NCBI GenBank assembly: GCA_963665815.1
Contig: OY762463.1
Location: 3,392,001-3,456,000, forward strand
DNA: 64,000 bases
Source: Candidatus Cloacimonadales bacterium
GTDB taxonomy: Bacteria > Cloacimonadota > Cloacimonadia > Cloacimonadales > JAIOQZ01
Direction: 5' to 3'
In this document: positions 41,665-63,770 of the stretch, in pieces
Layout: each line of letters opens with the position of its first letter
Numbering within the stretch: the stretch's first letter is position 1
The notes under the pieces: generated by a model
What the model was told of the DNA's origin: nothing
Databases searched by the model: none
Seen by the model: only the letters and a program-made list of their open reading frames with translations
Translations under genes and position numbers: made by a program

Positions 41665-41676
41665 TGGATATAATTT

Positions 41677-41955: not shown

Positions 41956-41958
41956 GTT

Positions 41959-42822
41959 ATGAGTATAATTGATAATTTATCAACTTTTGAAAAGATAAAA
42001 CACATAAATGAATACGATGTTGAATTCTGGTATGCAAGAGAGTTTGCTCAAGCACTTGATTATAGTAAATGGGCAAACTTCGAGAACATTATTAAAAAGG
42101 CTAAAATTGCCTGCAAAACCAGTGGTAACGTGGTTTCCGATCATTTTGCCGACGTCGGCAAAATGATAGATCTTCCTAAGGGAGCAGAAAGAGAAATAAA
42201 TGATGTAGCTCTTTCTCGATATGCTTGCTACCTCATTATGCAAGAAGCTGACTCTCGAAAAAAAGTTGTAGCTTTAGGGAAAACTTACTTTGCCATCCAG
42301 ACAAGAAGACAGGAACTTCAGGATGAATTTGAGCAGATTTCCGAAGATAGAAAGAGACTCGCTATTAGAAATGAATTAAAAGAACACAATAAACAATTAG
42401 CTGATGCTGCCCATAAAGCTGGAATTCAAAACAACATAGAATATGCAGTTTTTCAGAATTTTGGATATATGGGACTTTATGGTGGATTGAAAGCAAAAGA
42501 TATTCATAGAAGAAAAGGGTTGAGGAAAAGTCACAAAATTCTCGATTATATGGGAAGCACAGAACTCGCAGCTAATCTTTTCCGGGCTACCCAAACAGAG
42601 GAGAAATTGCGAAGAGATAATATTAAAGGTAAAGATAATGCCAATAAGACTCATTTGGAAATTGGTAAAAAAGTAAGACAAACTATAAAAGAAATTGGTG
42701 GTACAATGCCTGAAGATTTACCAACACCAAAGAAATCAATAATAAAAATACAAAAAGAAAACTGTATCTCCTCCAATGCTCCACAGTCCAAAATCCACTC
42801 CAATGGAGAAACTGATGAATAA
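41959..42822 (+). CDS. dinD: DNA damage-inducible protein D family
   Basis: FWYARE, LSRYACYLI, YFAIQTRRQE, FQNFGYMGLYGG, MGSTELAANLFRATQT, GGTMPEDLPTP. Confidence 0.9.
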   Translation: MSIIDNLSTFEKIKHINEYDVEFWYAREFAQALDYSKWANFENIIKKAKIACKTSGNVVSDHFADVGKMIDLPKGAEREINDVALSRYACYLIMQEADSRKKVVALGKTYFAIQTRRQELQDEFEQISEDRKRLAIRNELKEHNKQLADAAHKAGIQNNIEYAVFQNFGYMGLYGGLKAKDIHRRKGLRKSHKILDYMGSTELAANLFRATQTEEKLRRDNIKGKDNANKTHLEIGKKVRQTIKEIGGTMPEDLPTPKKSIIKIQKENCISSNAPQSKIHSNGETDE

Positions 42823-44002: not shown

Positions 44003-44016
44003 TCCAAGGAGGAATT

Positions 44017-46614: not shown

Positions 46615-49600
46615 CATAAAAATCACCGAAACAACAATAGAAAACTTTGCCATAGAGCTGCTAGAAGGGCTCGGATACGAATATTTATATGGTCCGGACT
46701 TAGCACCGGAAGGAGACAGACAGGAAAGACAATCTTTTGAAGATGTATTGCTGTTGGACAGGCTGGAAAATGCTATCCGCAGGTTAAATCCTGTATCCAC
46801 AAAAGAAGCCAGGGAAGATGCTTTCAAGCAGGTTTTAAGGCTTAATTCCACAGAGCTTATAAATAGTAACAGAGATTTTCATAAGCTTGTTACAGAGGGT
46901 GTAAATGTCTCTGTAAGGGATAACTCATACGAACGTGGAGACTACATCAAGTTAATTGACTTTGATATTGTTGAGAATAATGAGTTTCTTGTAGTCAATC
47001 AATATACCATTATTGAAGATGGAAAGAATAAACGACCGGATGTAATCTTGTTTGTCAATGGTATACCGCTTGTTGTAATTGAGCTAAAGAATCCTGCAGG
47101 TGAGAAATCCACCGTTAAGTCAGCTTTTAATCAGATTCAAAACTACAAGAAGACAATCCCATCATTATTTACTTATAATGGTTTAATCGTCATTTCGGAT
47201 GGACTGGAAGCAAAAGCAGGATCACTTTCTGCAGGTTATAACAGATTTATGAGCTGGAAAACAGCTGATGGTAAAACAGAAGCATCCAGACTTGTCGGAC
47301 AAATGGAAATCCTTATCAAAGGAATGCTCAATAAGAAAGTTCTCCTTGATTTGATAAGACACTTCATTGTTTTTGAACAAACAAAAAAAGAGGATTATAA
47401 AACAAAGATCACAACTATAGAGGTTGTGAAAAAACTTGCTGCTTACCATCAATACTATGCAGTAAACAAAGCAGTTGAAAGCACAATTCGAGCTGTCAAT
47501 TTATGCGGAGATAGTGTCAGGGAATCGCCTGCTGTATATAACTTACCCAATGTAATGAATCAACCTAAAGGAGACAGAAAAGCAGGGGTTATCTGGCATA
47601 CACAGGGATCAGGAAAGTCACTTTCCATGGTTTTCTACTCGGGGAAGATAGTCCTCAAACTCAATAATCCTACAATTCTTGTTATCACAGACAGGAACGA
47701 CTTGGATGATCAGCTTTTTGATACTTTTGCATCATCTCAACAATTATTGCGTCAAGTACCTGTTCAGGCAGAAAGCCGTGAGCATCTAAAAAAGCTGTTG
47801 AGAGTCTCGAGTGGTGGTGTTGTTTTTTCTACAATACAGAAGTTTCAACCTGAAGCGGGAAATGTGTATGAGAGGCTCTCCAACAGGGAAAATATTGTTG
47901 TAGTAGCTGACGAAGCACATAGAACTCAATATGGATTTAAAGCCAGAAATGTTGATGAAAAAGACTCAGCTGGTAATGTTATAGGTAAGAAAACTGTTTA
48001 TGGTCTGGCAAAATACTTAAGAGATGCTTTACCACACGCAAGTTTTATTGGATTCACCGGAACACCTATTGAGAAAACGGATGTGAACACACCTAAGGTT
48101 TTCGGAAACTATATAGATATATATGATTTTGCTCAGGCAATAGAAGATAAAGCAACTGTACCGATCTATTATGAAAGTCGTTTAGCCAAAGTATTCCTGA
48201 GCGATGAAGGTAAGAAACTAATCAAAGAACTGGATGACCGACTTGATAAAGAGGACATGGAGTTCTCAAAAGAAGTTAAAGCAAAACGAACCAAGTTAAA
48301 TGCATTAATAGGTAGTGATGAGCGAGTAAAACAGGTTGCACTGGATATTGTTAAACATTTTGAGAACAGACAGGAAGTATCATTCGGAAAAGGTATGATT
48401 GTAACATCTGCAAGATGGATTGCAGCTAAGCTATACAGTGAAATCATAAAACTTCGTCCTGAATGGGAACATAAAGATCTTGATAAAGGTTCCCTGAAAG
48501 TTGTAATGACAACATCTTCATCCGATGGAACTAAGTTTGAGAAACATCATACATCTAAATCTGACAGAAAAGTTTTATCAGATAGAATGAAAGATGCAGA
48601 TGATGAACTCAAGTTGGTAATCGTATGCGATATGTGGCTAACAGGATTTGATGTTCCTTGTCTTCATACAATGTACATAGATAAACCTATGAAGGGTCAT
48701 AATCTTATGCAGGCAATAGCAAGAGTTAATAGAGTTTATAAAGATAAGCCCGGAGGATTGATTGTAGATTATCTTGGTATTGCGTCAGATTTGAAAAGAG
48801 CGTTGTCATTTTATAGTGAGAATGGAGGTAAAGGAGACCCGGCAGAAGCCCAGGAACAAGCAGTGAAAATCATGCTTGAAAAACTTGAGGTTGTATCACA
48901 GCTATTACATGGATTCCCGTATGAAGATTATTTTGATGCTGATGTTTCCAGAAAATTGTCAATTATCTTAGAAGCTGAAGAATTTATTCTCCAACTTGAA
49001 AATGGAAAGAAGCGATTCATCTCAGAAGTAACAGCACTTTCAAAAGCATTTGCAATTGCAGTCCCCCATGAAGAAGCAATGGATGTTAAAGAGGAGATAG
49101 CATTCTTCCAGACTGTTAAATCCAGATTAGTTAAATTTGAGCCCAAAGGATCAGGTTTATCTGATGAAGAAATGGAGACAACTATCAAACAGGTTATTGA
49201 TCAAGCTCTTGTTTCAGACAAAGTTATCGATGTCTTTGATGCAGCAGGAATTAAGAAACCTGATATATCTATTCTTTCAGAAGAGTTTCTTCTTGAAGTC
49301 AAAGGCATGAAACATAAAAACGTAGCATTGGAAGTTCTTAAGAAATTACTGAATGATGAGATAAGAATAAGAGCTAAGACCAATATTGTACAGAGTAAGA
49401 CACTTATGGAGATGTTGGAGAATGCAATCCTTAAGTATCAGAACAAGATCATCTCAGCAGTCGAAGTTATTGAAGAGCTGATTAAAATGAGTAAAGAAAT
49501 GCAGAATATGGACAGAGAACCAGAGGAAATGGGATTATCTCCGTTTGAGTATGCATTTTATTCTGCAGTTGCTAACAATGATAGTGCAAAAGAGTTAATG

Positions 49601-49822
49601 GGTAAGGACAAACTAAGAGAACTAGCTGTTGTCTTGTTTGAAAAAGTTCGAAAGAACGCAACAATAGACTGGACAATCAAGGGTAGTGTCAGATCAAAAC
49701 TCAAGGTAATAGTCAAGAGAACTCTCAGACAGTTTGGTTATCCACCGGATATGCAAAAGCTTGCAACCGATACTGTACTTAAACAAGCAGAAAAAATAGC
49801 AGATGAGTTAACAAAAATGTAA
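46604..49822 (+). CDS. hsdR: Type I RM restriction subunit
   Basis: RPDVILFVNGIPLVVIELK, HTQGSGKS, DEAHR, FTGTP, MWLTGFD, QAIARVNR. Confidence 0.95.
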   Translation: MASNIKITETTIENFAIELLEGLGYEYLYGPDLAPEGDRQERQSFEDVLLLDRLENAIRRLNPVSTKEAREDAFKQVLRLNSTELINSNRDFHKLVTEGVNVSVRDNSYERGDYIKLIDFDIVENNEFLVVNQYTIIEDGKNKRPDVILFVNGIPLVVIELKNPAGEKSTVKSAFNQIQNYKKTIPSLFTYNGLIVISDGLEAKAGSLSAGYNRFMSWKTADGKTEASRLVGQMEILIKGMLNKKVLLDLIRHFIVFEQTKKEDYKTKITTIEVVKKLAAYHQYYAVNKAVESTIRAVNLCGDSVRESPAVYNLPNVMNQPKGDRKAGVIWHTQGSGKSLSMVFYSGKIVLKLNNPTILVITDRNDLDDQLFDTFASSQQLLRQVPVQAESREHLKKLLRVSSGGVVFSTIQKFQPEAGNVYERLSNRENIVVVADEAHRTQYGFKARNVDEKDSAGNVIGKKTVYGLAKYLRDALPHASFIGFTGTPIEKTDVNTPKVFGNYIDIYDFAQAIEDKATVPIYYESRLAKVFLSDEGKKLIKELDDRLDKEDMEFSKEVKAKRTKLNALIGSDERVKQVALDIVKHFENRQEVSFGKGMIVTSARWIAAKLYSEIIKLRPEWEHKDLDKGSLKVVMTTSSSDGTKFEKHHTSKSDRKVLSDRMKDADDELKLVIVCDMWLTGFDVPCLHTMYIDKPMKGHNLMQAIARVNRVYKDKPGGLIVDYLGIASDLKRALSFYSENGGKGDPAEAQEQAVKIMLEKLEVVSQLLHGFPYEDYFDADVSRKLSIILEAEEFILQLENGKKRFISEVTALSKAFAIAVPHEEAMDVKEEIAFFQTVKSRLVKFEPKGSGLSDEEMETTIKQVIDQALVSDKVIDVFDAAGIKKPDISILSEEFLLEVKGMKHKNVALEVLKKLLNDEIRIRAKTNIVQSKTLMEMLENAILKYQNKIISAVEVIEELIKMSKEMQNMDREPEEMGLSPFEYAFYSAVANNDSAKELMGKDKLRELAVVLFEKVRKNATIDWTIKGSVRSKLKVIVKRTLRQFGYPPDMQKLATDTVLKQAEKIADELTKM

Positions 49823-51919: not shown

Positions 51920-52519
51920 TCATAATATCCTATCCAAATTAACATACACTTCGTCAATCTGATCTTGAGTAATTCCGATATATCTTAGTGTCACATCTTG
52001 TGATGAATGATTGAATATCCGCATTAGTAAACTGAGATCAACACCATTTTTGTAAGCATGATACCCAAAGGTCTTTCTTAATGTGTGCGTACCTATCTTT
52101 GACCGAATTCCTGAACGATAAGCATAATCGTTCAGGAACTGCCAGACGTATTGTCGGGTCCAAGAATTTTTCGATCCAGACACACTATTGGATTTTGACT
52201 TGAACAGGAAATCCATTTCCTCTGGTTTAACATTCTTGTACAATTCCAGAATACTTTTTTTAACATTATCAGAAAATCTGAATTGCCTACTCTTTTTCGT
52301 TTTCTTTTCTTTTATAGTTATTGATAGTCTGAAAGTCGGATCCTTACCCAAATCTGAAAAAATATCATTCCAAGTTAATCTCAGAATATCAGAAATTCGC
52401 AATCCTGTTTTTATACCAATTTCGAATAGAGTTAATTCTCGGATCTTATTTTCCTTTTTCATTAGCTTTTTCATTTTACTAAGTTTCCGGAGATCTTTGA
52501 TTGGTTCTACATAGTTCAT
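51920..52519 (-). CDS. Short (catalytic-domain-only) tyrosine recombinase
   Basis: TGLRISD, EKKTKK, HTLRKTFGYH, FNHSS..VTLRYIG. Confidence 0.92.
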   Translation of the reverse strand: MNYVEPIKDLRKLSKMKKLMKKENKIRELTLFEIGIKTGLRISDILRLTWNDIFSDLGKDPTFRLSITIKEKKTKKSRQFRFSDNVKKSILELYKNVKPEEMDFLFKSKSNSVSGSKNSWTRQYVWQFLNDYAYRSGIRSKIGTHTLRKTFGYHAYKNGVDLSLLMRIFNHSSQDVTLRYIGITQDQIDEVYVNLDRIL

Positions 52520-52718
52520 ATAGTTGTCCTTTATTTTACTTAATGAGTTGTATGGCTCTATTTGTAATGCAAAACGGATTAACAGTTGATCCTGTTAATC
52601 CGTATATATGTTATAACTATAAGAATAATATGTAGTTAACTTTCTTTTATTTACTTTACACAAAATGATTGAGGAAAGGAGAAGAGCATTTCATAAATGA
52701 CGGTTATGAATAAGTGCT

Positions 52719-52756
52719 AAAAAAATAGGCATCACTATGAAAGTCGATGCCTATTT
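52719..52756 (-). terminator. Intrinsic terminator closing the decarboxylase-tyrS-orf93 unit
   Basis: aaataggcatc...gatgcctattt stem preceded by an A-run. Confidence 0.7.
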
Positions 52757-52767
52757 AAGATATTAGG

Positions 52768-53049
52768 TTACTTAAATAATTTTAGATTCAAGTTCTTCTC
52801 TAAATCAAGATACTCGTAAGTTTCATTCTTTTGAAGCGGAGTTCTTACGTCATGAGTTCCCATCGGAGTATAAAGCGGTTTATATTCTCTGAGAGGATTT
52901 ACTTGCTCATTCATTATGTAATCCTGAGAATAGTTTGGTCTTAACTGTTGATGATAAAGATTATCAACTCTGAATTGTCCTTGATCAATGCGTCTTGAGA
53001 AATCAAGTTGCCTTTGTTGTGATTGATTATAGAAAAAACTCTCACTCAT
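52768..53049 (-). CDS. Hypothetical Q/N/Y-rich small protein
   Basis: AGGAG RBS right after the tyrS stop; followed by a terminator. Confidence 0.65.
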   Translation of the reverse strand: MSESFFYNQSQQRQLDFSRRIDQGQFRVDNLYHQQLRPNYSQDYIMNEQVNPLREYKPLYTPMGTHDVRTPLQKNETYEYLDLEKNLNLKLFK

Positions 53050-53059
53050 TTCATTCTCC

Positions 53060-54352
53060 TTAGCTTAATTTAAGCATAATATAGTTTTTTTTTCCTTTTC
53101 TGACTACAACAACTTTCTTATCTATTATTGATTTGTTAAAAAGCTCATTGTAGTTGCCTGTGTTAGCTTTGACGTTATTGATGTAGAAACCACCATTTTT
53201 TACCAATCTTCTAAATTCACCATTTGAAGAAAAAATTCCTGATTTTGTAAAAGAAAATGCAATATCTGATTGCTGTTCAATCTCCCTTCTACTAATTGTG
53301 TAGATTGGGATTTGATCAAAAATGCGTAGTAATTCATCGTCAGTAAACTCACTTATATCTCCACCAAACAATGCTTTTGATGCTCTAAGAACTTTATTAA
53401 GTTCATCTACGCCATGAATCAGTTCAGTCATTGATTTTGCCAATTCTTTTTGAGCATACCTTTTTTCCGGAGCTTGCTTGTGTATTAACATAACTTGTTC
53501 AATATTTTCGAGCGTGGAAAAAGTGAAGTACTTCAAAAAATCCTCTACATCAGTATCCTCAACGTTGATCCAATACTGATAAAACTCATAAGGAGTAGTC
53601 ATGCTCTTATCAAGCCATATGGCATTTCCCATAGATTTACCAATTTTCTCACCATCTTTTGTTGTTATCAACGGTGATGTACAGCCATATACTTGTTGAT
53701 TAGATATTTTGTGTGTTAGAGCTATACCTGCTAATATATTTCCCCATTGATCGTTACCACCAATTTGCACATTTACTCCATATTTTTTGTTCAAGTAGTA
53801 GAAGTCATAGGCTTGCATTGTTTGATATGAAAACTCGGTAAATGTTATTCCATTCTCGGAGTTCAACCTTTTCTTTACACTTTCTTTGGCTAGCATATTG
53901 CTTAATTTGAAATGTTTACCAACATCTCTTAACCAGTCAACAAAGGTTATACTCCCAATCCAGTCATTATTGCGAACAATCTTTGTCTTGTTCTCTGAAT
54001 TGGGATTGATAATTGCCCTAATTTGTGTTTGTAATGATTTTACATTATTGTCTACAGTTTCCTTTGTGAGAAGAGATCTTTCGGATATCCTTCCTGATGG
54101 ATCTCCAATCATGCCTGTCGCATCACCAATCAGAACTATTGTTTTGAGTCCTCTATCCTTATACCTTTTGAGAGTCAATATTGAAAGAAGATGCCCTGTA
54201 TGAAGGCTAGGACCTGTAGGATCTACACCTACATATATTACAGGATTTTCATTTTCAATTATTTCATCCAATTTCTCGTATGAAACTTGTGCAAGCAGTC
54301 CTCTGAGTTCTAATTCTTTTAAGATTGATAAATCACATTTATGCTGATTCAT
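53060..54352 (-). CDS. tyrS: Tyrosine--tRNA ligase (island-borne)
   Basis: YVGVDPTGPSLHTGH, IGDPSGR, EFSYQTMQAYDF, QIGGNDQWGNI, KIGKS, C-terminal S4-like domain; start moved to MNQH after a GGAGA RBS. Confidence 0.93.
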   Translation of the reverse strand: MNQHKCDLSILKELELRGLLAQVSYEKLDEIIENENPVIYVGVDPTGPSLHTGHLLSILTLKRYKDRGLKTIVLIGDATGMIGDPSGRISERSLLTKETVDNNVKSLQTQIRAIINPNSENKTKIVRNNDWIGSITFVDWLRDVGKHFKLSNMLAKESVKKRLNSENGITFTEFSYQTMQAYDFYYLNKKYGVNVQIGGNDQWGNILAGIALTHKISNQQVYGCTSPLITTKDGEKIGKSMGNAIWLDKSMTTPYEFYQYWINVEDTDVEDFLKYFTFSTLENIEQVMLIHKQAPEKRYAQKELAKSMTELIHGVDELNKVLRASKALFGGDISEFTDDELLRIFDQIPIYTISRREIEQQSDIAFSFTKSGIFSSNGEFRRLVKNGGFYINNVKANTGNYNELFNKSIIDKKVVVVRKGKKNYIMLKLS

Positions 54353-56342
54353 TTTGTTCTCCTTCATTGAAAAAATGAGTTATTGGTGAGATTTCATCGA
54401 CCTGTTTTGACGAGTCTATACCTGAATAGTATTCCTCTTTAAGCTTCTTCAAGTAGTCACAAAAAGCATCAAAGACATGCTTTTTCTCTTCACCTTCTAC
54501 TACATATGAATTAATTGCATGAGGATGCATTATGCACGTCCTGAAGTATTTTTTACCATTCATAGTAGTTTCTACGACAGAGAATCGTTTACATCCATTC
54601 ACGGGGTGCATTTTCTTTAGCATTAACTCAGTTAGATGTTCGTTATTTTGCCATCGGTATGTTAGTATGTTGCTCTGGGGAGAATTAACAACCATCCCAT
54701 CTATTTCCTTAAGTTTTCTATATAAAAGGTTCGCAGCAATGATAGATGAGCAAACATCTTTACCTAAACCTTCTTGATTTAGAGGTTTAGAAACTAATGA
54801 AAAATAAAGCGAAATCGCACTTGCACCTGGTCTGCTTCCTTCAAGAGAAAACATTCCAGTAGGTAATTTAGCTTCTTTCTGAGTCCAGAGGTAGTCTGCA
54901 TTAGACGCAATATGCATAAGAGATCTCTTGTCTTTATACAATACGACTGACGATGGGTATGGAATGTATGTTGCTTTGTGAGGATCATATGTAATTGCAT
55001 CAACATCTTTCAATGCATTAGCCTTTTTCAGAATTCTGTCTGTAAAAAAAAGGCATTCATTTTGTATCTTATTGGAATCACTGGACGAAAAGCCGTGACT
55101 AACAGCTATTTGCCTAAAATAATTCTCTAATTGGCTTTGAGAAACAAGTTTTCCTTGTTTGTCTCGTAAAGCAGCAACAAAACTGATACCATAAGCTCCA
55201 TCAACAATTGTAAAAAAGCTAATGCCATGATTTTCTTCTAATTCATTTCTGAGTAATATAATAGCTTCAATGTCATCAAAGTTTGAATTCTCAGTTGTTC
55301 CAAAAATTCCAATGCAACCCATTATCCAAGACTCACTATTAATTATTATTTTTTTTACCTTATTTAAATCAATCGCATCATTTGTATCATTTTCAACTAA
55401 AATGAGACTTTCAGATCCAGAAGATCTCATTTTCAATGCTTTAACTATACTATAGTGTGCTGATTCAGATACTATGAACTTCCAAGAATTGTTCATTACT
55501 GTAAGGGAATCGGGAAAAGCTTTCTTGCATTTACATCTAAAAGCAAACTCACCAATGTAGTTCAGTAAATATGGAGATAGTATTTTATTAGTGATTCTAA
55601 CAACGTTTTTTGATTCATTATGAGCAATAATTTGGGAGGATAGCCTGATTAAGTCTTCCTTGATACAATTCTTCTGATTTATCGGTAAATTGATAAGTTC
55701 ATGAAATGATAATTCTGAGAACTGCTTGTTTTCTCCCCAAGCATTTGTTACGAAGTAATTATGTTTCCAATGTGAGATAAATCTTGAATGTAACTCGTTA
55801 TCTACTTCTATTGTCTCGTTTTTAATTGCTAATGAAACTGATAAGGGAAATGTCTGAATATTTGTTGCGACATGAATAGAACTCATCATTCCTGTTGTTC
55901 CTCCAGTTGTAAGGTTTCCATGAGCTGTGGAAGGATTATAACCTACTAGTTTTATAGCTTCAATGATGCAATACTCTTCACACTTGCTTGAAACGGGTGA
56001 ACTTACACTATCTACTAGGTTTTCATTAACTGTCATGCCTATCATTCCACCCATTAGTGATTCAGGACTCAATCTTGAATTCATATGTGCTAAGTATCTA
56101 GTTGATTGAAAGACTGGTGTTAATTGAAAAATGTCCTTGATTACTTGATATTGCTTATGATTAATGGGTTCTCTTCGAGGTTTTAAGTCGTTTGTGTCTA
56201 ATGGAAATTGCTGACGTTGTTTTGCAAGAAGTTCATCAATAGTATTTTGAAGATTGTTGCAAATACTTGTTACTGTCCTATAATAGGACTCATCGTAACC
56301 ATCTTTTGACTCTTCTGATGTCGGTGCATCGATACGTTCCAT
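54339..56342 (-). CDS. Group II PLP-dependent decarboxylase, tyrosine-decarboxylase-like
   Basis: RYLAHMNS, SSPVSS..EE, HYSIVKA, GTTE...D, VDGAYG, DPHK..YIPY, LEGSRPGA; stop overlaps the tyrS start. Confidence 0.8.
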   Translation of the reverse strand: MERIDAPTSEESKDGYDESYYRTVTSICNNLQNTIDELLAKQRQQFPLDTNDLKPRREPINHKQYQVIKDIFQLTPVFQSTRYLAHMNSRLSPESLMGGMIGMTVNENLVDSVSSPVSSKCEEYCIIEAIKLVGYNPSTAHGNLTTGGTTGMMSSIHVATNIQTFPLSVSLAIKNETIEVDNELHSRFISHWKHNYFVTNAWGENKQFSELSFHELINLPINQKNCIKEDLIRLSSQIIAHNESKNVVRITNKILSPYLLNYIGEFAFRCKCKKAFPDSLTVMNNSWKFIVSESAHYSIVKALKMRSSGSESLILVENDTNDAIDLNKVKKIIINSESWIMGCIGIFGTTENSNFDDIEAIILLRNELEENHGISFFTIVDGAYGISFVAALRDKQGKLVSQSQLENYFRQIAVSHGFSSSDSNKIQNECLFFTDRILKKANALKDVDAITYDPHKATYIPYPSSVVLYKDKRSLMHIASNADYLWTQKEAKLPTGMFSLEGSRPGASAISLYFSLVSKPLNQEGLGKDVCSSIIAANLLYRKLKEIDGMVVNSPQSNILTYRWQNNEHLTELMLKKMHPVNGCKRFSVVETTMNGKKYFRTCIMHPHAINSYVVEGEEKKHVFDAFCDYLKKLKEEYYSGIDSSKQVDEISPITHFFNEGEQNESA

Positions 56343-56708
56343 AGTATCCTCCATATTTAATTTGACACAGAAAACAGATCCCCTATAATTGTTTCGACTA
56401 GAACTACAGGGTTGGTTTCTTAGGAAACTGGCTCTGTTTTTGTGCTTTAACTAGAAAATATTCAGTATGAAGTTAATGTCAAGATAAAAAAACTCAAAAT
56501 ACATAAAAAAATATTCAAAAAAACATCACGAATAATTGGGTTGACTCTTTGCCTGTTGCCTTACGCGCTTTTAAAAAGCTCACAGTAACGATATTCTAGA
56601 TACTTTTAAATAAAATTTTTAACATTTTATACACAATCTCCGAAATATTTACATTATTCTTGACAAACTACTCATAAAAGTTTCAATTTGCATGAAAGGA
56701 GATTACTA

Positions 56709-58439
56709 TTGAGTGATTTTATTGATATAAAAGAATTCCTGAAACAACAAAAAGATAAGAGGAAAAGCTTTTCGATTGAAGAGTTAGCAAAGGAATTAAA
56801 AGCACAAGAAGATTTAGTAAAAAAAGAAATAGAGTCAAATATTCATGAATTTCAGATTGTATATGATCGAAGTGGAAAAGAAAAATATAAACTTGCCAAA
56901 GAAAAAACGAGTTTAGAAAAAGTACAAGAATTTTTGGTCAAGAATAGGCTAAAGTACTACACAAAGGATGAAATAGCCAAGCATACAGGCGTTGCTGGTG
57001 CGACCATGAATACTCTTTATGAAAGAAACCCCAATATGTTCGAAGTAAATAAAGTAAAGGCAAACAGTAAAACAAAACCGATAAATACTTATAAACTAAG
57101 AATTAAGAAAGCAGGGGAAATAATTGGACCTGGGGATTTTGGCTTCATCAAAAAAAACGATTTTAAGAAAGTTGATAAACTGACAAGCCCTGATAGTATT
57201 ATGGGAAATAGATTCGTTTCAATTGTTGGTGGAGTAAAAACAGGGAAAACTTCATTAGGTAATTATTATATTCAGAAATTTTGTGAAATTTTGCCTGAGT
57301 ACAAAGTTGTTGAAATAGATTTTGAAACTTTAATAAATTATTCAAATGCTGAAAGCGATATTAGTAAAACTGATGTGAAAGATGAGAGGGAACAAGGGCA
57401 CAGGTTAACATCATTGAAGTTGTTTTATGAAAATCTGCTATTGATAATACATGAGCAGATTTCAGACATAAAGATGACTATCAGATACTCGAAAGATAGA
57501 AAAAAAGCTGCTGTTGCTTGGGTAAACAAACTCAAATTGTATGGTTACAATTTTGAGGGTAATATGTTACAGGTTAATGAACCTTTCAATGAATTAAAGA
57601 TTGCTATAGGTGATGATGATAAAATGCCTTTACCGGATTCTTTGAGTGAAGTTCTGCAAATAGTATTGGAGCTGGATGATATAAAGAACGAAATTGCTCC
57701 AAAACTTGAACTTCCTGATTTTAAAAACGATGACTTATGTGCTCAAGATCTCATATATCAAGCATTAAACAAGTTTATTGCATTGATGATGAACGAGAGA
57801 TTCAATTTGTTCGTTTTCGATTGCATGGGGGCTGAGACGACTACAAACCAAAAGAATAATAGAGCTTTTAATTATGTGCAAGATAATTTCCTACATTTCC
57901 TTAGGGGAGTATACAACATGCAGTCTCATGCTGCACTAAGATACACAAAGTTCTTGTATATACTAACTGCAGAAAACGATTTAAGTGATGTATCTGTGTT
58001 CATGAAAACTCATAATAGTTGTATTAGACAACATGCTTTCAGTAAAGATAATGTAAAACATTTACTAGAAACAATGTGTATTGAAGATGAAGAATTTGTC
58101 ATTTCAGATTTAATTCATAAAAGTTTTTTGGGGCAGTGTTTTCTTACGCAATATTTTGTCCAGCATAGATCCAATGAACTTTTTGACTTAACTGAGCAGA
58201 AATTGTATTCATTGATGGATGATTTGCTATCTGAGACACCAATTATTCATTACTTCAGTAGAATTGATGATTTATTTAAGGATTTCTTTAAGGGTGACTC
58301 AATTTCTCAGGTGGATTTAAGTAATGTAAAAAAGAAAATGTTTTTGATGCAGAATAGTTTGATTAACGAGAAAGGGGAAAAGAGCTTATTTTATGAAATA
58401 CTTCTTAAAAATTTGAAAAAGGAGAATGCTGATGGATAA
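56709..58439 (+). CDS. Tandem wHTH-like N-terminus plus AAA_35/STAND-like P-loop ATPase
   Basis: FSIEELAKEL and YTKDEIAKHTGV (HTH-like); Walker A GGVKTGKT; Walker-B-like LFVFDC; TTG start after AAGGAG. Confidence 0.65.
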   Translation: MSDFIDIKEFLKQQKDKRKSFSIEELAKELKAQEDLVKKEIESNIHEFQIVYDRSGKEKYKLAKEKTSLEKVQEFLVKNRLKYYTKDEIAKHTGVAGATMNTLYERNPNMFEVNKVKANSKTKPINTYKLRIKKAGEIIGPGDFGFIKKNDFKKVDKLTSPDSIMGNRFVSIVGGVKTGKTSLGNYYIQKFCEILPEYKVVEIDFETLINYSNAESDISKTDVKDEREQGHRLTSLKLFYENLLLIIHEQISDIKMTIRYSKDRKKAAVAWVNKLKLYGYNFEGNMLQVNEPFNELKIAIGDDDKMPLPDSLSEVLQIVLELDDIKNEIAPKLELPDFKNDDLCAQDLIYQALNKFIALMMNERFNLFVFDCMGAETTTNQKNNRAFNYVQDNFLHFLRGVYNMQSHAALRYTKFLYILTAENDLSDVSVFMKTHNSCIRQHAFSKDNVKHLLETMCIEDEEFVISDLIHKSFLGQCFLTQYFVQHRSNELFDLTEQKLYSLMDDLLSETPIIHYFSRIDDLFKDFFKGDSISQVDLSNVKKKMFLMQNSLINEKGEKSLFYEILLKNLKKENADG

Positions 58440-60681
58440 ATGTTTTGCTGATGGAGGATGTGTTGACAAGAGCAGACATATTTATGCTAGAAGAAAAGAA
58501 GATGTTAAACTTAAGGAATTGATTATTGATGATTGCAGTACCGTTTATGTTAATGGACCTAGAGCTGTTGGGAAATCAAGCTTAGTAAGAAGTGTAACTG
58601 ACGACTCAAATGAAGTAATTACAATCAATGTTGATTTAAGATTTTATTCTCGTAAGGAGTATACACCGGAAAACTGGTTCCTCATGTTGTTTCAAGCAAT
58701 TGATAGTAGTCTTAGTTTTGTTCTTCCAAATTTTAGGCATGGTGAAGTAATAAATTGGTTCAGAACATACAGTAGTGAATACTCATCACAAGCTAATTAT
58801 CTTCTTGATTTCTTTAAGTTGTTTATAAGGGGTGAAAAGAACATTAAAAGAAAATTTGTGATTGTGTTTGATGAAGTCGATGTGATTCAATCTAATGGAT
58901 ATCACACAGATAACTTTCTAACGGGAATCGTTTTACTTAATAAGGAGTTACAGAATCTTAACTTGTCTCAAGTTTTGATATCCATAAGTCACCCGATGTT
59001 CTTAGTTAGGGAGTTAAAGTACTCAGATATTAAGATAGGTACAAGGATAATTGTGAATGATTTTGAGAACATTGACGAGATAACAATGAAGGATTGGGCT
59101 GAGGGGTTATTTAACATTAATGAGGAATCTAGACTGAAATTAACAAAAGAGATTATTGAGTACACAGGGGGACATCCATATATTTCAGGTATAATTGGCA
59201 ATATTATAAATTCTGAATATTCTGGTAATATTGAAAATAACACTCTAAAAAAAATTATTGATCAATTCATTACTGATCAGAAGAGCTCATCAAATATTAA
59301 TCCTCATTTTGAAGCTCCAAGAGATTTCATTTTGATGAGACCTAGTTTGGCATATGAGGTACTCGACTTTTATGAGCAGGTTATTGCTGTTGATGGGTAT
59401 ATTGATCTAGATATAGAGAAAAAAACAGCAAATGATCCCAAACTAATTATTGCCGTATTGTCTATAACTGGGCTTGTAAGAAGACACTATTCTGGTCAGT
59501 ATAAGTGCAGAAGTTATATTTATAGGCGAATTTTCAATGATAAGTGGGTAGGTAACACTAAATCTCATCTTGGAAGTCGATTATTTTCAGGTAACGTATT
59601 GGCTTCGCACAAAAGGTCTGACCTACCCAAAATTGGATTAATTAATTGTGGTGGAACATTAGGTATGACAGAGCATGATGGAAAAATTCAAGCACCTTCA
59701 AATGAAGAGGAGTTTTATAGAATGTTCCCTTCATTAAGTCATATGGCAGATGTAAGACTTATACCATTCAGGATCAAAGATGGTGCAAACATGTTTATCG
59801 AGGATTATAGTGAGTTAGCTAAGCATATTTATTTAAGAAGAGATGATGGTTTTGATGCTTTTATAATAATGCATGGAACTGACACTTTAACATACACTGC
59901 ATCAGGTGTTGCATTTGCTTTGGGCAAAGGTTTAAATTGTCCAGTAGTCTTTGTTGCAAGTCAAGCCCCTGTTTCAGTTAGATATGGTGATGCTGAAATT
60001 AATCTTAAACGTGCTTTTGCAGTTGCCACAATGAAGATAAATGAAGTAGTCATATGTTTTAATGATTCTGTTTTTAGGGCTGTTAGAACCGAGAAATTGT
60101 CAGACTATAGATTTAATGGGTTTCACTCACCTACATATCCTGCTATTGCTACAATTAGCGAGAAGATAGAGTTAAGTGAAAAATGGTCATCTGAAAATGA
60201 AACAAATAAATCGAGTGCTCCTGAGTATATGTTAAATAATGAGTTTGAACCTAATATCCTACAGATAGTACAATATCCTGGAATAAATCCTAAGAATTAC
60301 GAGGATATTGTGTTTAGTTGTGGAAGTAAAGTTAAAGCGATTATTATTCAGAGTTTAGGTTTGGGTAATCTACCAACAATGGGTGAGTATAATTTTCTTC
60401 CATTTATAAGTAGGGCTGTTTCAAAAAATATTCCGGTTGTTATTACTAGTAAATATCCAATTCTGCCGGAGTTTGTTGAGAAATATATCCCTGCTAGTAG
60501 ACCGGTCCAATCAGGAGCTATACATGCAGGAAATATGACTCCATCTGCTGCTCTTACAAAATTATCTTGGATTTTAAAAGGGATATATAAAGAAGTAGAA
60601 ATAGGAATCACTAAAGTGGAAAATTTAATACGAGTTGTAGAGAGAAAAATGAAAACAAATTATATTGGAGAATTAGATTAA
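58432..60681 (+). CDS. AAA_35/STAND-like ATPase fused to type I L-asparaginase
   Basis: GG......YARRKED, GPRAVGKSS, VIVFDEVD, TGGHPY, IYRRIFNDKWV; then CGGTLGM, HGTDT, PVVFVASQ, GLGNLP, MTPSAALTKL. Confidence 0.85.
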   Translation: MDKCFADGGCVDKSRHIYARRKEDVKLKELIIDDCSTVYVNGPRAVGKSSLVRSVTDDSNEVITINVDLRFYSRKEYTPENWFLMLFQAIDSSLSFVLPNFRHGEVINWFRTYSSEYSSQANYLLDFFKLFIRGEKNIKRKFVIVFDEVDVIQSNGYHTDNFLTGIVLLNKELQNLNLSQVLISISHPMFLVRELKYSDIKIGTRIIVNDFENIDEITMKDWAEGLFNINEESRLKLTKEIIEYTGGHPYISGIIGNIINSEYSGNIENNTLKKIIDQFITDQKSSSNINPHFEAPRDFILMRPSLAYEVLDFYEQVIAVDGYIDLDIEKKTANDPKLIIAVLSITGLVRRHYSGQYKCRSYIYRRIFNDKWVGNTKSHLGSRLFSGNVLASHKRSDLPKIGLINCGGTLGMTEHDGKIQAPSNEEEFYRMFPSLSHMADVRLIPFRIKDGANMFIEDYSELAKHIYLRRDDGFDAFIIMHGTDTLTYTASGVAFALGKGLNCPVVFVASQAPVSVRYGDAEINLKRAFAVATMKINEVVICFNDSVFRAVRTEKLSDYRFNGFHSPTYPAIATISEKIELSEKWSSENETNKSSAPEYMLNNEFEPNILQIVQYPGINPKNYEDIVFSCGSKVKAIIIQSLGLGNLPTMGEYNFLPFISRAVSKNIPVVITSKYPILPEFVEKYIPASRPVQSGAIHAGNMTPSAALTKLSWILKGIYKEVEIGITKVENLIRVVERKMKTNYIGELD

Positions 60682-60695
60682 TAAAGGAGATTAAT

Positions 60696-62192
60696 ATGTC
60701 AAAGGAAGTATTTAAAACAGGATATGATAAGGCAAACAAAGGAAAAGGAGTGCTTGTTATATATACGGGTGGTACTATTGGATCAATGCCTAAGGATCCT
60801 AAAGATCCTGATAGTCCACAAGTCGTAGTCGGTTGGGAAAAATACAAGGAACTTACTCCGCAGATACATGAGGAATACATCGGATTCAATGTTGATGCCT
60901 ATAGTACTGAACCGTTAGATAGTTGTAATGTTGGTCCTGTCATATGGAAAGAGATAGCAATGGTTATCAAAGAATCATATGATAAATATGAAGGATTTGT
61001 CATTCTTCATGGCACAGACACAATGGTTTATACCGCAAGTGCATTAAGCTTCATGTTGAATAATCTTGGTAAACCCGTAGTTATAACTGGTGCTCAAATG
61101 GCATACCTGTTTAATGTAAGAAATGATGGGTTTCAGAACATGATATCAGCTTTGCAAATTGCAAATCCAAAATTTTCTGGTATACCAGTTATTCCAGAAG
61201 TTACACTCTATTTTAATGGAAAATTGCTCAGAGGTAATAGAGCGAGGAAAATTAATGCATCTGGATTTAACGCATATATTTCTGCAAACTATCCACCATT
61301 GGCAACAATAGGTGAAAGTATTGTTGTTGATGAGAAGTTGATACGAGAAAAGAGCAAGTTGTCTTTTAATGCAAAAACAAGAATGGAAACTGGTGTTGTG
61401 GCTATTAATTTTTTCCCTGGTATTCAGGATGGAAAAGTGCTTGAGAGAATACTCTCTGACCCAAGTTTAAAAGGGGTTGTTTTAATGGCTTATGGTGCTG
61501 GAAACATTCCAACCGACAAAAAAGTTCTGGACTTGATCAAGAAAACGACTGATCGAGGAGTAGTTGTATTGGATGTAACGCAATGTGGTGGTGGAAAGGT
61601 AGAACTTGGAATGTATGAGACTAGTGCTCTTTTATTGGACGTTGGTGTAGTTAGCGGAATAGATATAACTCCTGAAGCAGCACTCACTAAGTTAATGTAT
61701 TTACTTGCAGATGAAGATGATAGTCCTCATGCTATTGCGCTTAAGGTAGAAAGGGATTTGGCGGGAGAACAAAGTATGAGCATATATACTGCTGAGTTTA
61801 AATCATCGGGAACTTGCAGTGTTGATTCAACTATGAATAGAAGCAGAATTCCTGCTGCAAATATTGAAGGTACTTGGAATAATAATGATATTGAACGGAT
61901 AATGTTGCGTTTTAGAAATGGCGTGATAAGTAATCCTAATATAGATGAGTATGCAAAAATTAAACTATTTATGGATATTAGTTCAGATGATGATCTTGAT
62001 GAAAACAGTGTTAATTATTTAGGATGCTTCAACAGATTACAAAATGATGATCCAACTATTTTATTCTTTGATATAACAGATAAGGCAAAAGAAATATTAG
62101 CAAAAAGAGCTTCTATTACTGTAGTAATGGATTCAGAAACCGCTTCGTTTACTTGGGAAAAGGCTGAACTAACTATTTTTGTGAAAAGTTAA
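60696..62192 (+). CDS. Type I L-asparaginase/glutaminase family with ~130-aa C-terminal extension
   Basis: IYTGGTIGS, LDS, HGTDTMVYTASALSF, TGAQ, RGNRARK, YGAGN, TQC, DITPEAALTKL. Confidence 0.9.
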   Translation: MSKEVFKTGYDKANKGKGVLVIYTGGTIGSMPKDPKDPDSPQVVVGWEKYKELTPQIHEEYIGFNVDAYSTEPLDSCNVGPVIWKEIAMVIKESYDKYEGFVILHGTDTMVYTASALSFMLNNLGKPVVITGAQMAYLFNVRNDGFQNMISALQIANPKFSGIPVIPEVTLYFNGKLLRGNRARKINASGFNAYISANYPPLATIGESIVVDEKLIREKSKLSFNAKTRMETGVVAINFFPGIQDGKVLERILSDPSLKGVVLMAYGAGNIPTDKKVLDLIKKTTDRGVVVLDVTQCGGGKVELGMYETSALLLDVGVVSGIDITPEAALTKLMYLLADEDDSPHAIALKVERDLAGEQSMSIYTAEFKSSGTCSVDSTMNRSRIPAANIEGTWNNNDIERIMLRFRNGVISNPNIDEYAKIKLFMDISSDDDLDENSVNYLGCFNRLQNDDPTILFFDITDKAKEILAKRASITVVMDSETASFTWEKAELTIFVKS

Positions 62193-62196
62193 TGAT

Positions 62197-62222
62197 GGGT
62201 AAGTTTTCTTACCCCTTTTTTT
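62197..62222 (+). terminator. Intrinsic terminator-like hairpin before the last gene
   Basis: gggtaag-tttt-cttaccc-c-ttttttt. Confidence 0.65.
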
Positions 62223-62230
62223 GAGGAAAT

Positions 62231-63592
62231 GTGAAGAAATATACAAAGCTAGATTACAATAAAGCTAATATGAGAAGTAATTCAGAGTTTGATGAAGAAA
62301 TCCCGTCAAATGTAAAAGTTATTGAAAGCTTATTCAGCCAATACCGGAAAGGATTTAAGTTTTCAAGGAATGCTTATGCAGGAAGTTGCAGGGATGCTAG
62401 ATCAAAGCGTTATAGACTTGGGAATCGTGGTATTCCTCTTAGCGATGAGCTAAAGTCAATAATTGGTAAAGTTGTAAATCACAAGCAGATTACCTATGTT
62501 GCCTTACATTGCAGGGGGGATATGGAAATCTGTGTTGATAACATAATTGACGTTTTGAATATCGAAGGTGAGTTTGCTGTATTAAACGCAGATGAGCTTT
62601 TTGCTGTTTTCAATATGGAATACGGTACGGTTAACCCTTTTGTCCTATCGAGCTCGGAAACGGAAAGCATAAACCAAATTTTTGATTCAAGAGTGTTTGA
62701 GCAACATGTGAAGCTTCCCGGAACAATGATGACTAATGCCGGAGATCATACTTGGGCTATAGAGTTTGATCCTCTTGATTTAAAGGTATTGATTCCTGAT
62801 ATGGTTGTTGCGAAGATCGCAGAGATAAATCAGGCTACTGAGGACTACGAAGAATTGTCTAGATTAAATCTACGATCTATTGGTTTAATTACCGGAAATG
62901 GTCCAGATTCCGGAATGGCTCTGTGGCAACTGATTAATGATAATGTAAAAGAGATAATGAGTGATAAATTTCTTGGTGACTTATCATTACCGGAAGTAAA
63001 TGTGCTTTCGGTTCCGGGAATGGGGCTATCCATGGAATTGAAACTAAGAAAGAGTGCAACTTGGAGAGAATTATCAAGAGCTGTTGAAACTCTTTGTAAT
63101 CATGGTGTTGATATTCTATGTCTAGCTTGTCATACTACTCACTACTTCTCAGATCAGATTAAAGAGATTTGTAAAAAGTATGGAGTTACTTTTCTTTCTA
63201 TGCCGGAAGTTGTTGTATCATACCTTCAGAAAAAAAAGATTACAGAATTCGCCTTATTAGGGATACCGTCGGTTGCAGACCTTGGTGAATGGAGTGCATA
63301 TTCTACTTTGAATAAGTATAATCCTGAAATTTTGGATTCTGAAACTCTTGATTCTTTTCTAGAAATAGGTTACCTAGTTAAGCAGAAACAGCCATTTGAA
63401 AAAAGCTTCCAGAAACTTATACACTTAATAAAGAAAAAGATAAAATCTGAAAATGTTATTATTGCCTTAACAGAGTTATCAATATTGCTGCAAAAGCAAT
63501 CTAATAAAAAACGAAGAAGAAACATTATTGATGCTCTTGAGCTTTATGGAGAGGCTATTGCAAAAGCTTCTTTAGGCCTAAAATGGCATTAA
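62231..63592 (+). CDS. YbaK/ProX-like aminoacyl-tRNA editing domain fused to an Asp/Glu racemase-family domain
   Basis: ELKS, GTVNPF, TNAGD..WAIEF (YbaK); IGLITGNGP, LACHTTHYF, IIALTELS (racemase fold, second Cys replaced). Confidence 0.7.
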   Translation: MKKYTKLDYNKANMRSNSEFDEEIPSNVKVIESLFSQYRKGFKFSRNAYAGSCRDARSKRYRLGNRGIPLSDELKSIIGKVVNHKQITYVALHCRGDMEICVDNIIDVLNIEGEFAVLNADELFAVFNMEYGTVNPFVLSSSETESINQIFDSRVFEQHVKLPGTMMTNAGDHTWAIEFDPLDLKVLIPDMVVAKIAEINQATEDYEELSRLNLRSIGLITGNGPDSGMALWQLINDNVKEIMSDKFLGDLSLPEVNVLSVPGMGLSMELKLRKSATWRELSRAVETLCNHGVDILCLACHTTHYFSDQIKEICKKYGVTFLSMPEVVVSYLQKKKITEFALLGIPSVADLGEWSAYSTLNKYNPEILDSETLDSFLEIGYLVKQKQPFEKSFQKLIHLIKKKIKSENVIIALTELSILLQKQSNKKRRRNIIDALELYGEAIAKASLGLKWH

Positions 63593-63603
63593 ACAATTAA
63601 CTA

Positions 63604-63634
63604 AGTACAAGTTGGAGTTGTTCCAACTTGTACT
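63604..63634. terminator. Hairpin after the last island gene
   Basis: agtacaagttgga-gttgt-tccaacttgtact, perfect 13-bp stem. Confidence 0.6.
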
Positions 63635-63770
63635 CTCCATGAGCGGTAAAACAAACCAATTACATCAGTTTCCCACACATAATTTCATTAAAACTGTCCG
63701 TTAAACGTCCGTCGGTATGATGGGTCAATTGATAATTACCTGAAAGGTATAGGGTTAGAATACATAATAA

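Follow-up and report, generated by a model that had tools for sequence, protein, structure and literature searches.

Why should one 11-kb locus combine, on one strand, a tyrosine decarboxylase-like enzyme and a spare tyrosyl-tRNA synthetase and, on the other, P-loop nucleoside triphosphatases (NTPases), asparaginases and a fusion of a YbaK-like to a racemase-like domain? The locus lies in a 64,000-nucleotide stretch of the genome of a Candidatus Cloacimonadales bacterium (contig OY762463.1, positions 3,392,001 to 3,456,000), which we refer to as the window, and it had been picked out in an earlier model-made reading of the letters (the original prediction). Its seven open reading frames (ORFs) are found where that reading had placed them: a minus arm of three genes (decarboxylase, tyrS and the small gene orf93) and a plus arm of four, divergently transcribed and together encoding seven soluble proteins. 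We propose, with a probability of about 0.5, that the locus was acquired horizontally as a single unit, lies in a defence island and encodes an NTPase-gated conflict system that acts on amino acids and aminoacyl-tRNA and carries swappable cargo.

The plus arm is a conserved, horizontally moving core of four genes. The second of these encodes a fusion of an ATPase to an asparaginase, a rare protein (7 clusters in a word-based search), and a scan of one genome per species yielded 16 other loci with this core (L004-L019). Their hosts are nine Acidobacteriota, three Alphaproteobacteria (Rhodospira trueperi among them), an Aminicenantes metagenome-assembled genome (MAG), a Dehalococcoidales MAG, a Thermoplasmatota archaeon and an unclassified bacterium; 40 relatives of the window's genome, from the same genus to the same order, gave matches to the asparaginase part of the fusion only. 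A homologue of the third window gene, asparaginase2 (41-60% identity), stands directly downstream of the fusion in all 16 loci, the YbaK/racemase gene comes after it in 14 of them, the remaining two contigs ending earlier, and a same-strand gene of 403-652 aa lies immediately 5' of the fusion in 14. Asparaginase2 is the best-conserved protein, with 61% mean column identity over 13 loci. In the metagenome scan the core was seen on short contigs only (L084, L085 and L102). The gene order predicted for this arm, ATPase-asparaginase-asparaginase-YbaK/racemase, stands with two amendments, in that the second gene is the ATPase fusion, which gives the arm two ATPases, and the racemase half of the last protein lacks a catalytic cysteine.

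Closely related cores are found with different cargo. This is the case for L013 compared with L016, and also for L010, L012, L014 and L017, whose upstream ATPases match with E-values of 1e-68 or lower. In the Acidobacteriota loci L014 and L015 (15347-21300), the core and a downstream block are common at 92-98% identity and the upstream genes are entirely different, indicating that the core and the downstream block moved together. The shared block encodes a B3_4-domain protein, a third asparaginase and two further proteins of 313 and 784 aa, the larger of which is split in L014.

To see what else accompanies the core, the flanks were annotated with Pfam (133 ORFs of 15 loci, with the near-duplicate L015 omitted) and NCBIfam (55 ORFs). 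Counting the window, with its tyrosine decarboxylase-like enzyme and tyrosyl-tRNA synthetase (TyrRS2), 4 of 17 loci have an arm that includes a synthetase. In L013, a lysine/ornithine/arginine decarboxylase-like gene (OKR_DC_1) is followed by a lysyl-tRNA synthetase gene (560.3 bits, cut-off 468); this arm is co-directional with the core, and 126 nt lie between the end of the synthetase gene and ATPase1, the first ATPase gene. The L017 arm, divergent from the core, has an L-serine ammonia-lyase-like gene and then a seryl-tRNA synthetase gene (473.6 against 301.65 bits), and that of L008, likewise divergent, has genes for a proline 3-hydroxylase-like protein (TIGR04531 family), a prolyl-tRNA synthetase (318.2 against 306.7) and a TauD-family dioxygenase. 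The enzyme comes first in all four arms, on the same strand as the synthetase, with a 29-nt overlap in the window and gaps of 19, 74 and 19 nt in the others. Each of the synthetases exceeds its curated cut-off, and each of the partner enzymes falls far below the equivalog cut-off (149 against 905, 94.5 against 968, 152.9 against 345 and 115.6 against 300 bits). All four synthetases are extra copies: the window's genome has a second, housekeeping tyrS elsewhere, 27% identical to TyrRS2, the L017 genome has two serS genes, that of L013 has lysS and two fragments at contig ends, and that of L008 has a 588-bit proS besides the copy in the locus. We found no dedicated tRNA gene beside the synthetase arms in the 16 loci. 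The L008 prolyl-tRNA synthetase (3979-5541) has no INS editing domain, model positions 220-405 being unmatched; the core of this locus supplies a YbaK-like domain, which is a free-standing relative of the missing one.

As a control, the four synthetases were searched against 64 loci of plain asparaginases (1.03 Mb), none of which matched at E <= 1e-8, compared with 3 of the 16 core loci (0.27 Mb). Chance can hardly account for a single syntax, enzyme followed by cognate extra synthetase, that recurs beside one rare core for four amino acids and in as many lineages. If the arms were nevertheless neighbours by chance, a degenerate tyramine-type module of decarboxylase and tyrS would have come to lie in a variable island next to a separate plus-arm system. 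Several observations agree with this: tblastn (E <= 1e-5) found no homologue of the window decarboxylase, TyrRS2, orf93 or ATPase1 at any of the 16 loci, no homology was seen between the flanking proteins of one locus and another apart from the near-identical pair L014 and L015, several independent systems are present in the island, and tyrS beside tdc is by itself a known pairing, as the available part of PMC3315439 describes. We still consider it unlikely, given that the control loci have no such synthetase and that three further lineages show the same syntax next to the same rare core, each for another amino acid and in one case in an operon-like arrangement. This recurrence beside one rare core, once in line with it, leads us to conclude that the two arms are probably one functional unit.

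The minus arm is the exchangeable cargo of this copy, and what recurs is its kind, not its gene families. The single module acting on amino acid pools and tRNA charging that had been predicted is thus retained as a conserved core with swappable cargo (3 of 16 loci), but not as a fixed set of gene families. The prediction had also named independent distribution of the two arms as the finding that would count against it; by gene family the arms are indeed adjacent only here, whereas by kind the same arm stands beside the core in those three loci. Other cargo, as far as its annotation suggests, also concerns amino acids or charged tRNA: L012 has LPG_synthase_C and S-adenosylmethionine decarboxylase-like genes, L009 has DgcN/DgcA-like genes overlapping the core end, L016 and L017 have racemases, L018 has a PrnB-like protein, and the L014/L015 block has its B3_4 editing-domain protein and third asparaginase.

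TyrRS2 itself is, by its sequence, a second, complete and foreign tyrosyl-tRNA synthetase. It belongs to TIGR00234, matches PF00579 (270 bits) and, in an S4-like C-terminal domain, the SYY C-terminal family PF22421 (42.9 bits), and has the class I HIGH and KMSKS motifs as HTGH and KIGKS; a gene of this type is absent from the 40 relatives of the genome, in which the best matches reach at most 32% identity. Two overlapping frames suggest that its true start is likely the internal ATG at 54352, behind an AAGGAG. The decarboxylase is best described as a divergent group II pyridoxal 5'-phosphate (PLP) enzyme that seems closest to the bacterial tyrosine decarboxylases. It matches PF00282 (55.7 bits), retains the PLP lysine (DPHK) and the HYS and VDxAYG motifs, and has as its best PDB relatives 5hsi (E 3e-32) and 7cwx (E 2e-31), presumably the lactobacillal and enterococcal tyrosine decarboxylases; against the tyrosine decarboxylase equivalog TIGR03811 it scores 149.1 bits, below the cut-off of 905.3, and a word-based search returned one weak homologue only. 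The third gene, orf93, has no Pfam, NCBIfam or PADLOC match and no hydrophobic stretch, and no counterpart was found at the 16 other core loci. Its product is rich in Gln, Leu, Tyr and Asn (8 Tyr in 93 residues, or 9%, with 12% Gln and 9% Asn), and as the neighbour of a spare TyrRS it is conceivable as a Tyr-rich reporter or substrate peptide. Small ORFs at other loci were rejected as recurrent orf93-like genes; they look like non-coding frames of GC-rich DNA.

The pairing of these genes resembles the tyramine cluster tyrS-tdcA-tyrP-nhaC of enterococci and lactobacilli, in which, according to the part of PMC3315439 available, tyrS is proposed to secure charged tRNA-Tyr during tyrosine decarboxylation. 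As in that description, a second TyrRS lies directly beside a long-type tyrosine decarboxylase, and the idea of an extra synthetase that secures or senses Tyr-tRNA while tyrosine is consumed carries over. In contrast to it, the order in the window is reversed (decarboxylase, then tyrS), there is neither a tyrosine/tyramine antiporter (tyrP) nor a T-box leader, the pair is attached to an NTPase-asparaginase core, and lysine, serine and proline pairs take its place elsewhere. A canonical tyramine cluster was dropped for the lack of antiporter and T-box and for the decarboxylase score (149.1 against 905.3), and these missing hallmarks also speak against a degenerate tyramine module brought here by chance. 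T-box or riboswitch control of the synthetase arm was ruled out, Rfam giving no match at E <= 1 over 52400-57000; over the whole window its single gathering-score match is a tRNA. The predicted absence of a transporter was borne out as well. Pfam found no transporter family among the locus proteins, none of the seven has a membrane-helix-like stretch, and a single 19-residue segment, in the decarboxylase, exceeds a hydrophobicity of 1.6.

Turning to the NTPases of the core, the ATPases upstream of the fusion at different loci align as one divergent family, and by Pfam 10 of 13 have AAA_35, 4 an XRE-type helix-turn-helix (HTH) domain and 2 (L004 and L010) a TIR_2 domain. The fusion's own ATPase half proved to be a homologue of these proteins (hhalign 97.9%, E 5.8e-13, 230 columns). 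This half, ATPase2, comprises an AAA_35/STAND-like NTPase at residues ~13-256 and a helical region to ~390; it scores 30.8 bits with PF14516 (cut-off 27), and its Walker A GK48 and Walker B D147-E148 are invariant in 7 fusion sequences, so that it is an AAA_35 member with both Walker motifs and looks active. ATPase1 of the window is the positional counterpart of the HTH- or TIR-linked AAA_35 ATPases at other loci. It has a Walker A motif, GGVKTGKTS, behind an uncharacterised N-terminal region of ~165 residues, and no Pfam match. Its sole relative among 1.84 billion representatives is P0011 (E 8.5e-8), a TIR_2 and AAA_35 protein that aligns to it in two collinear stretches, including the GQxxLT motif of the upstream-ATPase family. 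The winged helix-turn-helix that had been predicted at the N-terminus, and by which this ATPase was thought to be placed to control both arms, could not be confirmed, there being no match in Pfam, PDB sequences or Atlas.

The surroundings of the locus have an immune flavour. The region from tRNA-Arg(CCT) onward (31542-31618, the sole tRNA in the window and 21 kb from the synthetase arm) looks like a tRNA-anchored defence island. To the left of the locus are a type I restriction-modification (R-M) system at 39493-49822 (hsdM-DUF559, Bro-N, hsdS, an 865-aa AAA_21-like ATPase and hsdR), a DUF4145 protein and a 199-aa truncated integrase with the catalytic half only, and the variable region that follows the tRNA (32309-52519) also holds a Rad52/22 protein, a ribbon-helix-helix antitoxin-like protein and a 914-aa protein with weak nucleotidyltransferase matches. 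To the right comes first a secreted BNR/Sortilin protein, which has a Por-type sorting tail, and then a Type ISP R-M enzyme of 1642 aa (L156:5073-10001, ~4.1-9 kb past the window's right end; Mrr_cat_2, ResIII, ISP coupler, methylase and Type_ISP_C domains), after which comes an IS200-like remnant. Synteny with a same-genus genome did not place the borders of the island, as the two markers chosen from its flanks are 266 kb apart there. Neighbours at other core loci include TIR, DUF4231/SLATT-like, RES-domain toxin, Schlafen/AlbA_2, CHAT-TPR and integrase genes and a gene of an integrative and conjugative element. Upstream of the tRNA, at 23383-26977, the window also encodes a Fic/DOC family protein (477 aa) and an AAA_14/nSTAND3-like ATPase (445 aa). 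Among 11 proteins searched against PADLOC-DB 2.0, none had a meaningful match (the sole match, to PDC-S01, reached 18.1 bits over the P-loop, E 2e-4), and a known defence system was rejected for want of a useful one. An NTPase family with TIR and HTH variants, a sporadic spread across domains of life, R-M, TIR and toxin neighbours and the swapping of cargo together incline us towards a conflict system rather than housekeeping metabolism.

In these respects the locus can be compared with the STAND/NLR-like and TIR-linked NTPase defences, among them Avs, bNACHT and the NTP-dependent conflict systems described in eLife 2020;9:e52696. Shared features are a switch-type NTPase with a variable N-terminus, variable effectors and a patchy, island-borne distribution. 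In contrast, the window system is multi-gene and has amino acid enzymes and true synthetases in the variable position, and no TPR, WD40 or LRR repeat sensor was seen on the core NTPases. The words asparaginase, YbaK and racemase do not occur in the text of that paper as available.

A non-immune alternative is a stress or nutrient module, in which amino acid-consuming enzymes would serve pH or nitrogen homeostasis (asparaginase or serine dehydratase by releasing ammonia, decarboxylases by consuming protons), the HTH-ATPases would be regulators, and the synthetase and the YbaK-like protein would guard translation at low pools. Acid resistance or ammonia production is a classical role of decarboxylases, asparaginases and serine dehydratase, and the HTH domain on 4 of 13 upstream ATPases and the rationale published for tyrS of the tyramine cluster (PMC3315439, available part) agree with such a module. 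Decarboxylation-based acid resistance, however, needs an antiporter or transporter, of which there is none, the proline hydroxylase/TauD arm of L008 is a misfit, and the partner enzymes are highly divergent. With TIR-fused variants, a sporadic and island-borne distribution and a core that is absent from 40 relatives, we regard such a module as very unlikely.

If the locus is a conflict system, the last protein of the core is its candidate effector. The window protein falls below the Pfam cut-offs for both halves (PF04073, 24.6 bits, cut-off 25.5; PF01177, 27.3 bits, cut-off 31), and among 13 family members tRNA_edit is matched in 11 (E <= 0.01) and Asp_Glu_race in 12. Against PDB sequences, the family profile retrieved the racemase 3ojc (E 3.8e-13) and no YbaK at E <= 0.01. 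The fusion family has at least 299 clusters, of which the best 120 all score above 489 bits. A model built from a 95-sequence alignment (predicted local distance difference test score, pLDDT, 92.6) has the YbaK-like domain at ~40-200 and the racemase-like domain at ~215-450. By Foldseek, the N-terminal half has the YbaK fold (TMt 0.81 to 1dbu, 0.85 to 1wdv and 0.78 to ProX 2z0k, the range with 2dxa being 0.77-0.85) and the C-terminal half the racemase fold (0.83 to 5hra and 0.77 to 5ell); on this model the former is a predicted aminoacyl-tRNA-editing-fold domain. Its residues C53, R60, R62, H93, G132, P136, MTN167-169 and E178 are invariant in the 95 sequences, a Lys-Ser pair and a G-x-x-N-P loop are conserved, and K75, the presumed equivalent of the substrate-binding lysine of YbaK, is kept in 94. 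The domain thus matches the YbaK/ProX trans-editing factors in fold and differs from them in its fusion to a racemase-like domain and in the extra invariant residues C53, H93 and C94.

The racemase-like half does not have the pair of catalytic cysteines (CNT-type and GCTE motifs) of aspartate/glutamate racemases. At the cysteine of the GCTE motif (position 413) 78 of the 95 members have L and 17 have M, and at the equivalent of the first-motif cysteine 75 have C, 17 A and 3 D. Loss of the second catalytic cysteine in all 95 excludes a two-base racemase and for the same reason makes D-aspartate, a product that had been suggested for this locus, an unlikely one; the simplest reading of the alignment is that the domain serves as a ligand binder.

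Both asparaginases of the core retain their catalytic residues. Asparaginase2 is a type I L-asparaginase by its TIGR00519 score and by its catalytic Thr, Thr-Asp and Lys residues, with TGGTIGS and HGTDT motifs and T24/T27, T107-D108 and K185 invariant in 13 sequences. The type I domain occupies residues 1-360, and a conserved C-terminal beta-sandwich (~362-496) forms a 135-residue extension. The model of the protein (pLDDT 79.8) resembles the type I asparaginase 5dnc (Z 35.8) and GatD (2d6f_B, Z 31.4). In its model, the beta-sandwich is similar to the domain at the C-terminus of tyrosinase (Z 12.1) and, less closely, to CBM6/35 modules (Z 8-10.5); Atlas scores for it were all below 0.8 and the structure search returned a generic beta-sandwich, a common fold from which no function follows. 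The asparaginase domain of the fusion (residues 402-719) is type I/GatD-like, with 140.2 bits for PF00710, 50.8 for PF17763 and, below the cut-off of 260.5, 168.9 for TIGR00519; T409, T483-D484 and K555 are invariant in 7 sequences.

In GatDE, the archaeal Glu-tRNA(Gln) amidotransferase, the GatD subunit belongs to the asparaginase family and acts on an amino acid attached to tRNA. Both asparaginase domains of the window match GatD models at 142-182 bits. These scores, however, lie under the GatD cut-offs of 310-324, and asparaginase2 passes the type I cut-off instead. Neither a GatD N-terminal domain nor a GatE/GatB-type partner was found among the 12 scanned proteins of the region, and a GatDE-like transamidosome was dropped for lack of GatE.

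With all core proteins in view, a further alternative can be weighed, a small-molecule biosynthetic cluster, which the original prediction had itself put forward. The asparaginases, the decarboxylase (by way of tyramine) and the YbaK/racemase protein would then make an amino acid-derived or tRNA-dependent metabolite; if this were a synthetase inhibitor, the spare synthetase would confer self-resistance and the cargo enzyme would supply an amino acid-specific warhead. Clusters for synthetase inhibitors carry self-resistance copies of synthetases, and an extra synthetase with an enzyme for the same amino acid fits this pattern. Furthermore, the partner enzymes are all divergent and not housekeeping, an NRPS (nonribosomal peptide synthetase) module and a ketosynthase lie near two cores (L016, L012), and the LPG_synthase_C and B3_4 proteins are tRNA-linked. 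The core, on the other hand, has no ligase, ATP-grasp, carrier protein, methyltransferase, exporter or membrane protein, its NTPases are AAA_35/STAND-like and TIR-fused in 2 of 13 relatives, its racemase-like domain lacks the catalytic cysteine, and it is found in R-M, TIR and toxin-antitoxin islands, not in biosynthetic surroundings. The products of serine dehydratase and lysine decarboxylase would also probably be poor building blocks for synthetase mimics. The NTPase types, the defence-island settings and the lack of ligase, carrier and exporter disfavour a biosynthetic cluster, and we judge it distinctly unlikely. Were it true, these loci would form a family of natural-product clusters directed at synthetases, in which the cargo itself labels the target (Tyr, Lys, Ser or Pro).

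For a conflict system with asparaginases there is a precedent in prediction. A preprint (bioRxiv 10.64898/2026.10.19.760177) predicts, by comparative genomics, systems in which an asparaginase-family enzyme would produce a diffusible ligand that binds a sensor domain and so activates the effector joined to it, and, on the part of it available, these V4R-asparaginase systems share with the window an asparaginase, a fusion of a binding domain to an effector, a P-loop NTPase and immune-type neighbourhoods. Unlike them, the window has no V4R or ParA domain by Pfam, and so lacks the defining V4R domain; its NTPases are AAA_35/STAND-like, one of them fused to an asparaginase, and it has two asparaginases; and its candidate sensor is a disabled aspartate/glutamate racemase fold and its candidate effector a YbaK-like fold. 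The available main text of the preprint has no occurrence of YbaK or of racemase. The two kinds of system are linked by one metagenome contig, L102, which at 818-5664 has an asparaginase2-like gene (500 aa), a gene for a ParA-like NTPase (534 aa) and one for a 366-aa asparaginase, with AsnA (asparagine synthetase A) and GatE/GatD genes nearby; it may be a ParA/V4R-asparaginase system of the preprint with an adjoining asparagine-resynthesis gene. In the literature searched we came across neither a system that combines asparaginase, YbaK and racemase nor defence-island cargo that pairs a synthetase with its cognate enzyme, and the supplements of the preprints may list such neighbourhoods.

Observed directly were the genes of the locus, a core that is both conserved and mobile, recurring enzyme-synthetase arms, the protein folds and a racemase half that has lost its cysteine; from these we infer by analogy how an NTPase-gated conflict system of this composition might work, including its trigger, its substrates, the direction of control and its immune role. 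A trigger such as phage infection would be sensed through the NTPases, of which ATPase1 is probably a sensing or regulatory one, and would switch on the asparaginase pair. Acting on asparagine or another amide, the asparaginases would drain its pool and make an aspartate-like product. This product, or the fall in asparagine, might be read by the racemase-like domain as ligand sensor, which in turn would control the fused YbaK-like domain and its action on aminoacyl-tRNA. The cargo enzyme would remove a second amino acid, tyrosine in the window, and the dedicated synthetase would keep or restore the charging of the cognate tRNA, as is proposed for tyrS in the available part of PMC3315439. The net effect could be a reversible, amino acid-specific brake on translation.

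A number of points weigh against this proposal. The proposal is at its weakest where the cargo is concerned: a spare synthetase that keeps tRNA charged would help a phage as much as its host, so that it is not obvious how such cargo serves immunity. True synthetases and metabolic enzymes would also be unusual effectors, and the HTH-ATPases may simply regulate the transcription of a catabolic regulon. A synthetase arm is present in only 4 of the 17 loci, L005 and L011 have no recognisable cargo, and several flanking genes belong to ordinary metabolism and are possibly chance neighbours. The membership of ATPase1 in the upstream-ATPase family rests on its position, the context of its Walker A motif and one intermediate sequence (P0011), and hhalign comparisons with that family are weak (probabilities of 11.8%, over 37 columns, and 6.9%, both in the Walker A region only). 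None of the seven proteins matched a PADLOC model beyond the 18-bit P-loop match. As to mobility, no copy was found in viral contigs searched for relatives of the YbaK/racemase protein, and the plasmid search returned nothing beyond a plain gene of the racemase family on an Ensifer plasmid. Finally, the terminator and promoter scans did no better than shuffles, and the consensus applied in them may not suit this host.

Taken further, the proposal would make these loci a new class of immunity by amino acid-specific translational starvation, in which an NTPase switch acts on paired asparaginases and on a YbaK-like deacylase gated by a racemase-derived sensor, and interchangeable cassettes for Tyr, Lys, Ser or Pro combine an enzyme breaking down or modifying the amino acid with a synthetase dedicated to it, the latter as a device for host reset or immunity. 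In this strong form we hold it to be doubtful. The metabolite-depleting defences known so far remove NAD+, deoxynucleoside triphosphates or ATP, and we know of no defence that targets free amino acids or the bond between tRNA and its amino acid. If it were true, the effector currency would be a new one, charged tRNA and free amino acids in place of DNA, NAD+, nucleotides or membranes, and the presence of spare synthetases in genomic islands would be explained. It would also give a testable role to asparaginase-family genes that, on the available part of the 2026 preprint, are placed in conflict systems by prediction only. On either the immune or the biosynthetic reading, the locus, with seven soluble proteins in 11 kb, is small enough for direct testing.

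Table 1 Features of the locus and their coordinates in the window.
Feature	Position	Strand	Remarks
12-bp-stem hairpin	52574..52603		165 nt downstream of orf93
orf93	52768..53049	-	last minus-arm gene; AAGGAG 6 nt 5' of ATG
TyrRS2	53060..54367	-	TIGR00234 387.6 bits, cut-off 113.8
Group II PLP decarboxylase, 671 aa	54339..56354	-	first minus-arm gene; likely start 56342
Divergent intergenic region, 366 bp	56343..56708		bounded by starts favoured by Shine-Dalgarno-like motifs
ATPase1, 583 aa, P-loop NTPase	56688..58439	+	likely start 56709
ATPase2-asparaginase fusion, 751 aa	58426..60681	+	PF14516, PF00710, PF17763
Asparaginase2, 498 aa	60696..62192	+	TIGR00519 269 bits, cut-off 260.5
GC-rich hairpin, 7 bp, then CTTTTTTT	62197..62214	+	between asparaginase2 and YbaK/racemase gene
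YbaK-like/racemase-like fusion, 453 aa	62231..63592	+	PF04073 and PF01177 below cut-off; fold matches
Perfect 14-bp-stem hairpin	63603..63635		directly after last plus-arm gene

The plus-arm genes are closely packed: the first two overlap by 14 nt, and the later junctions are gaps of 14 and 38 nt. Shine-Dalgarno-like motifs in the DNA favour the starts at 56342 for the decarboxylase and 56709 for ATPase1, which leaves a gap of 366 bp between the arms, where ~365 bp had been predicted. Strong motifs of this type (GGAGG, AAGGAG) precede three gene starts of the locus and presumably a fourth, that of TyrRS2. Such motifs are rarely used in Bacteroidota, at which the Por-type tail of the neighbouring protein hints as the host group, and they may be a trace of recent transfer. 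A shared operator in the gap was rejected, as only short imperfect repeats and no clear operator repeat were seen, and the leader fold of the region is no stabler than that of shuffles (z -0.81). Each arm is followed by a hairpin, in keeping with the prediction that hairpins close them (Table 1); however, the one at 63603 has no T-run on the plus strand, and the scan as a whole found terminator-like sites at chance level (7 observed, 5.2 +/- 2.7 in shuffles). Within the intergenic region, a perfect TTGACA-16-TATAAT match on the plus strand (56362-56389) is followed ~17 nt past the TATAAT by a 14-bp hairpin with a T-run (56406-56437; TTTTTG to 56443). The element at 56362-56443 could specify a very short transcript or act as an early attenuator, 270 nt 5' of the first plus-arm gene. 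Similarly, the internal terminator-like hairpin and T-run at 62197-62222 could lower the expression of the last gene of the plus arm.

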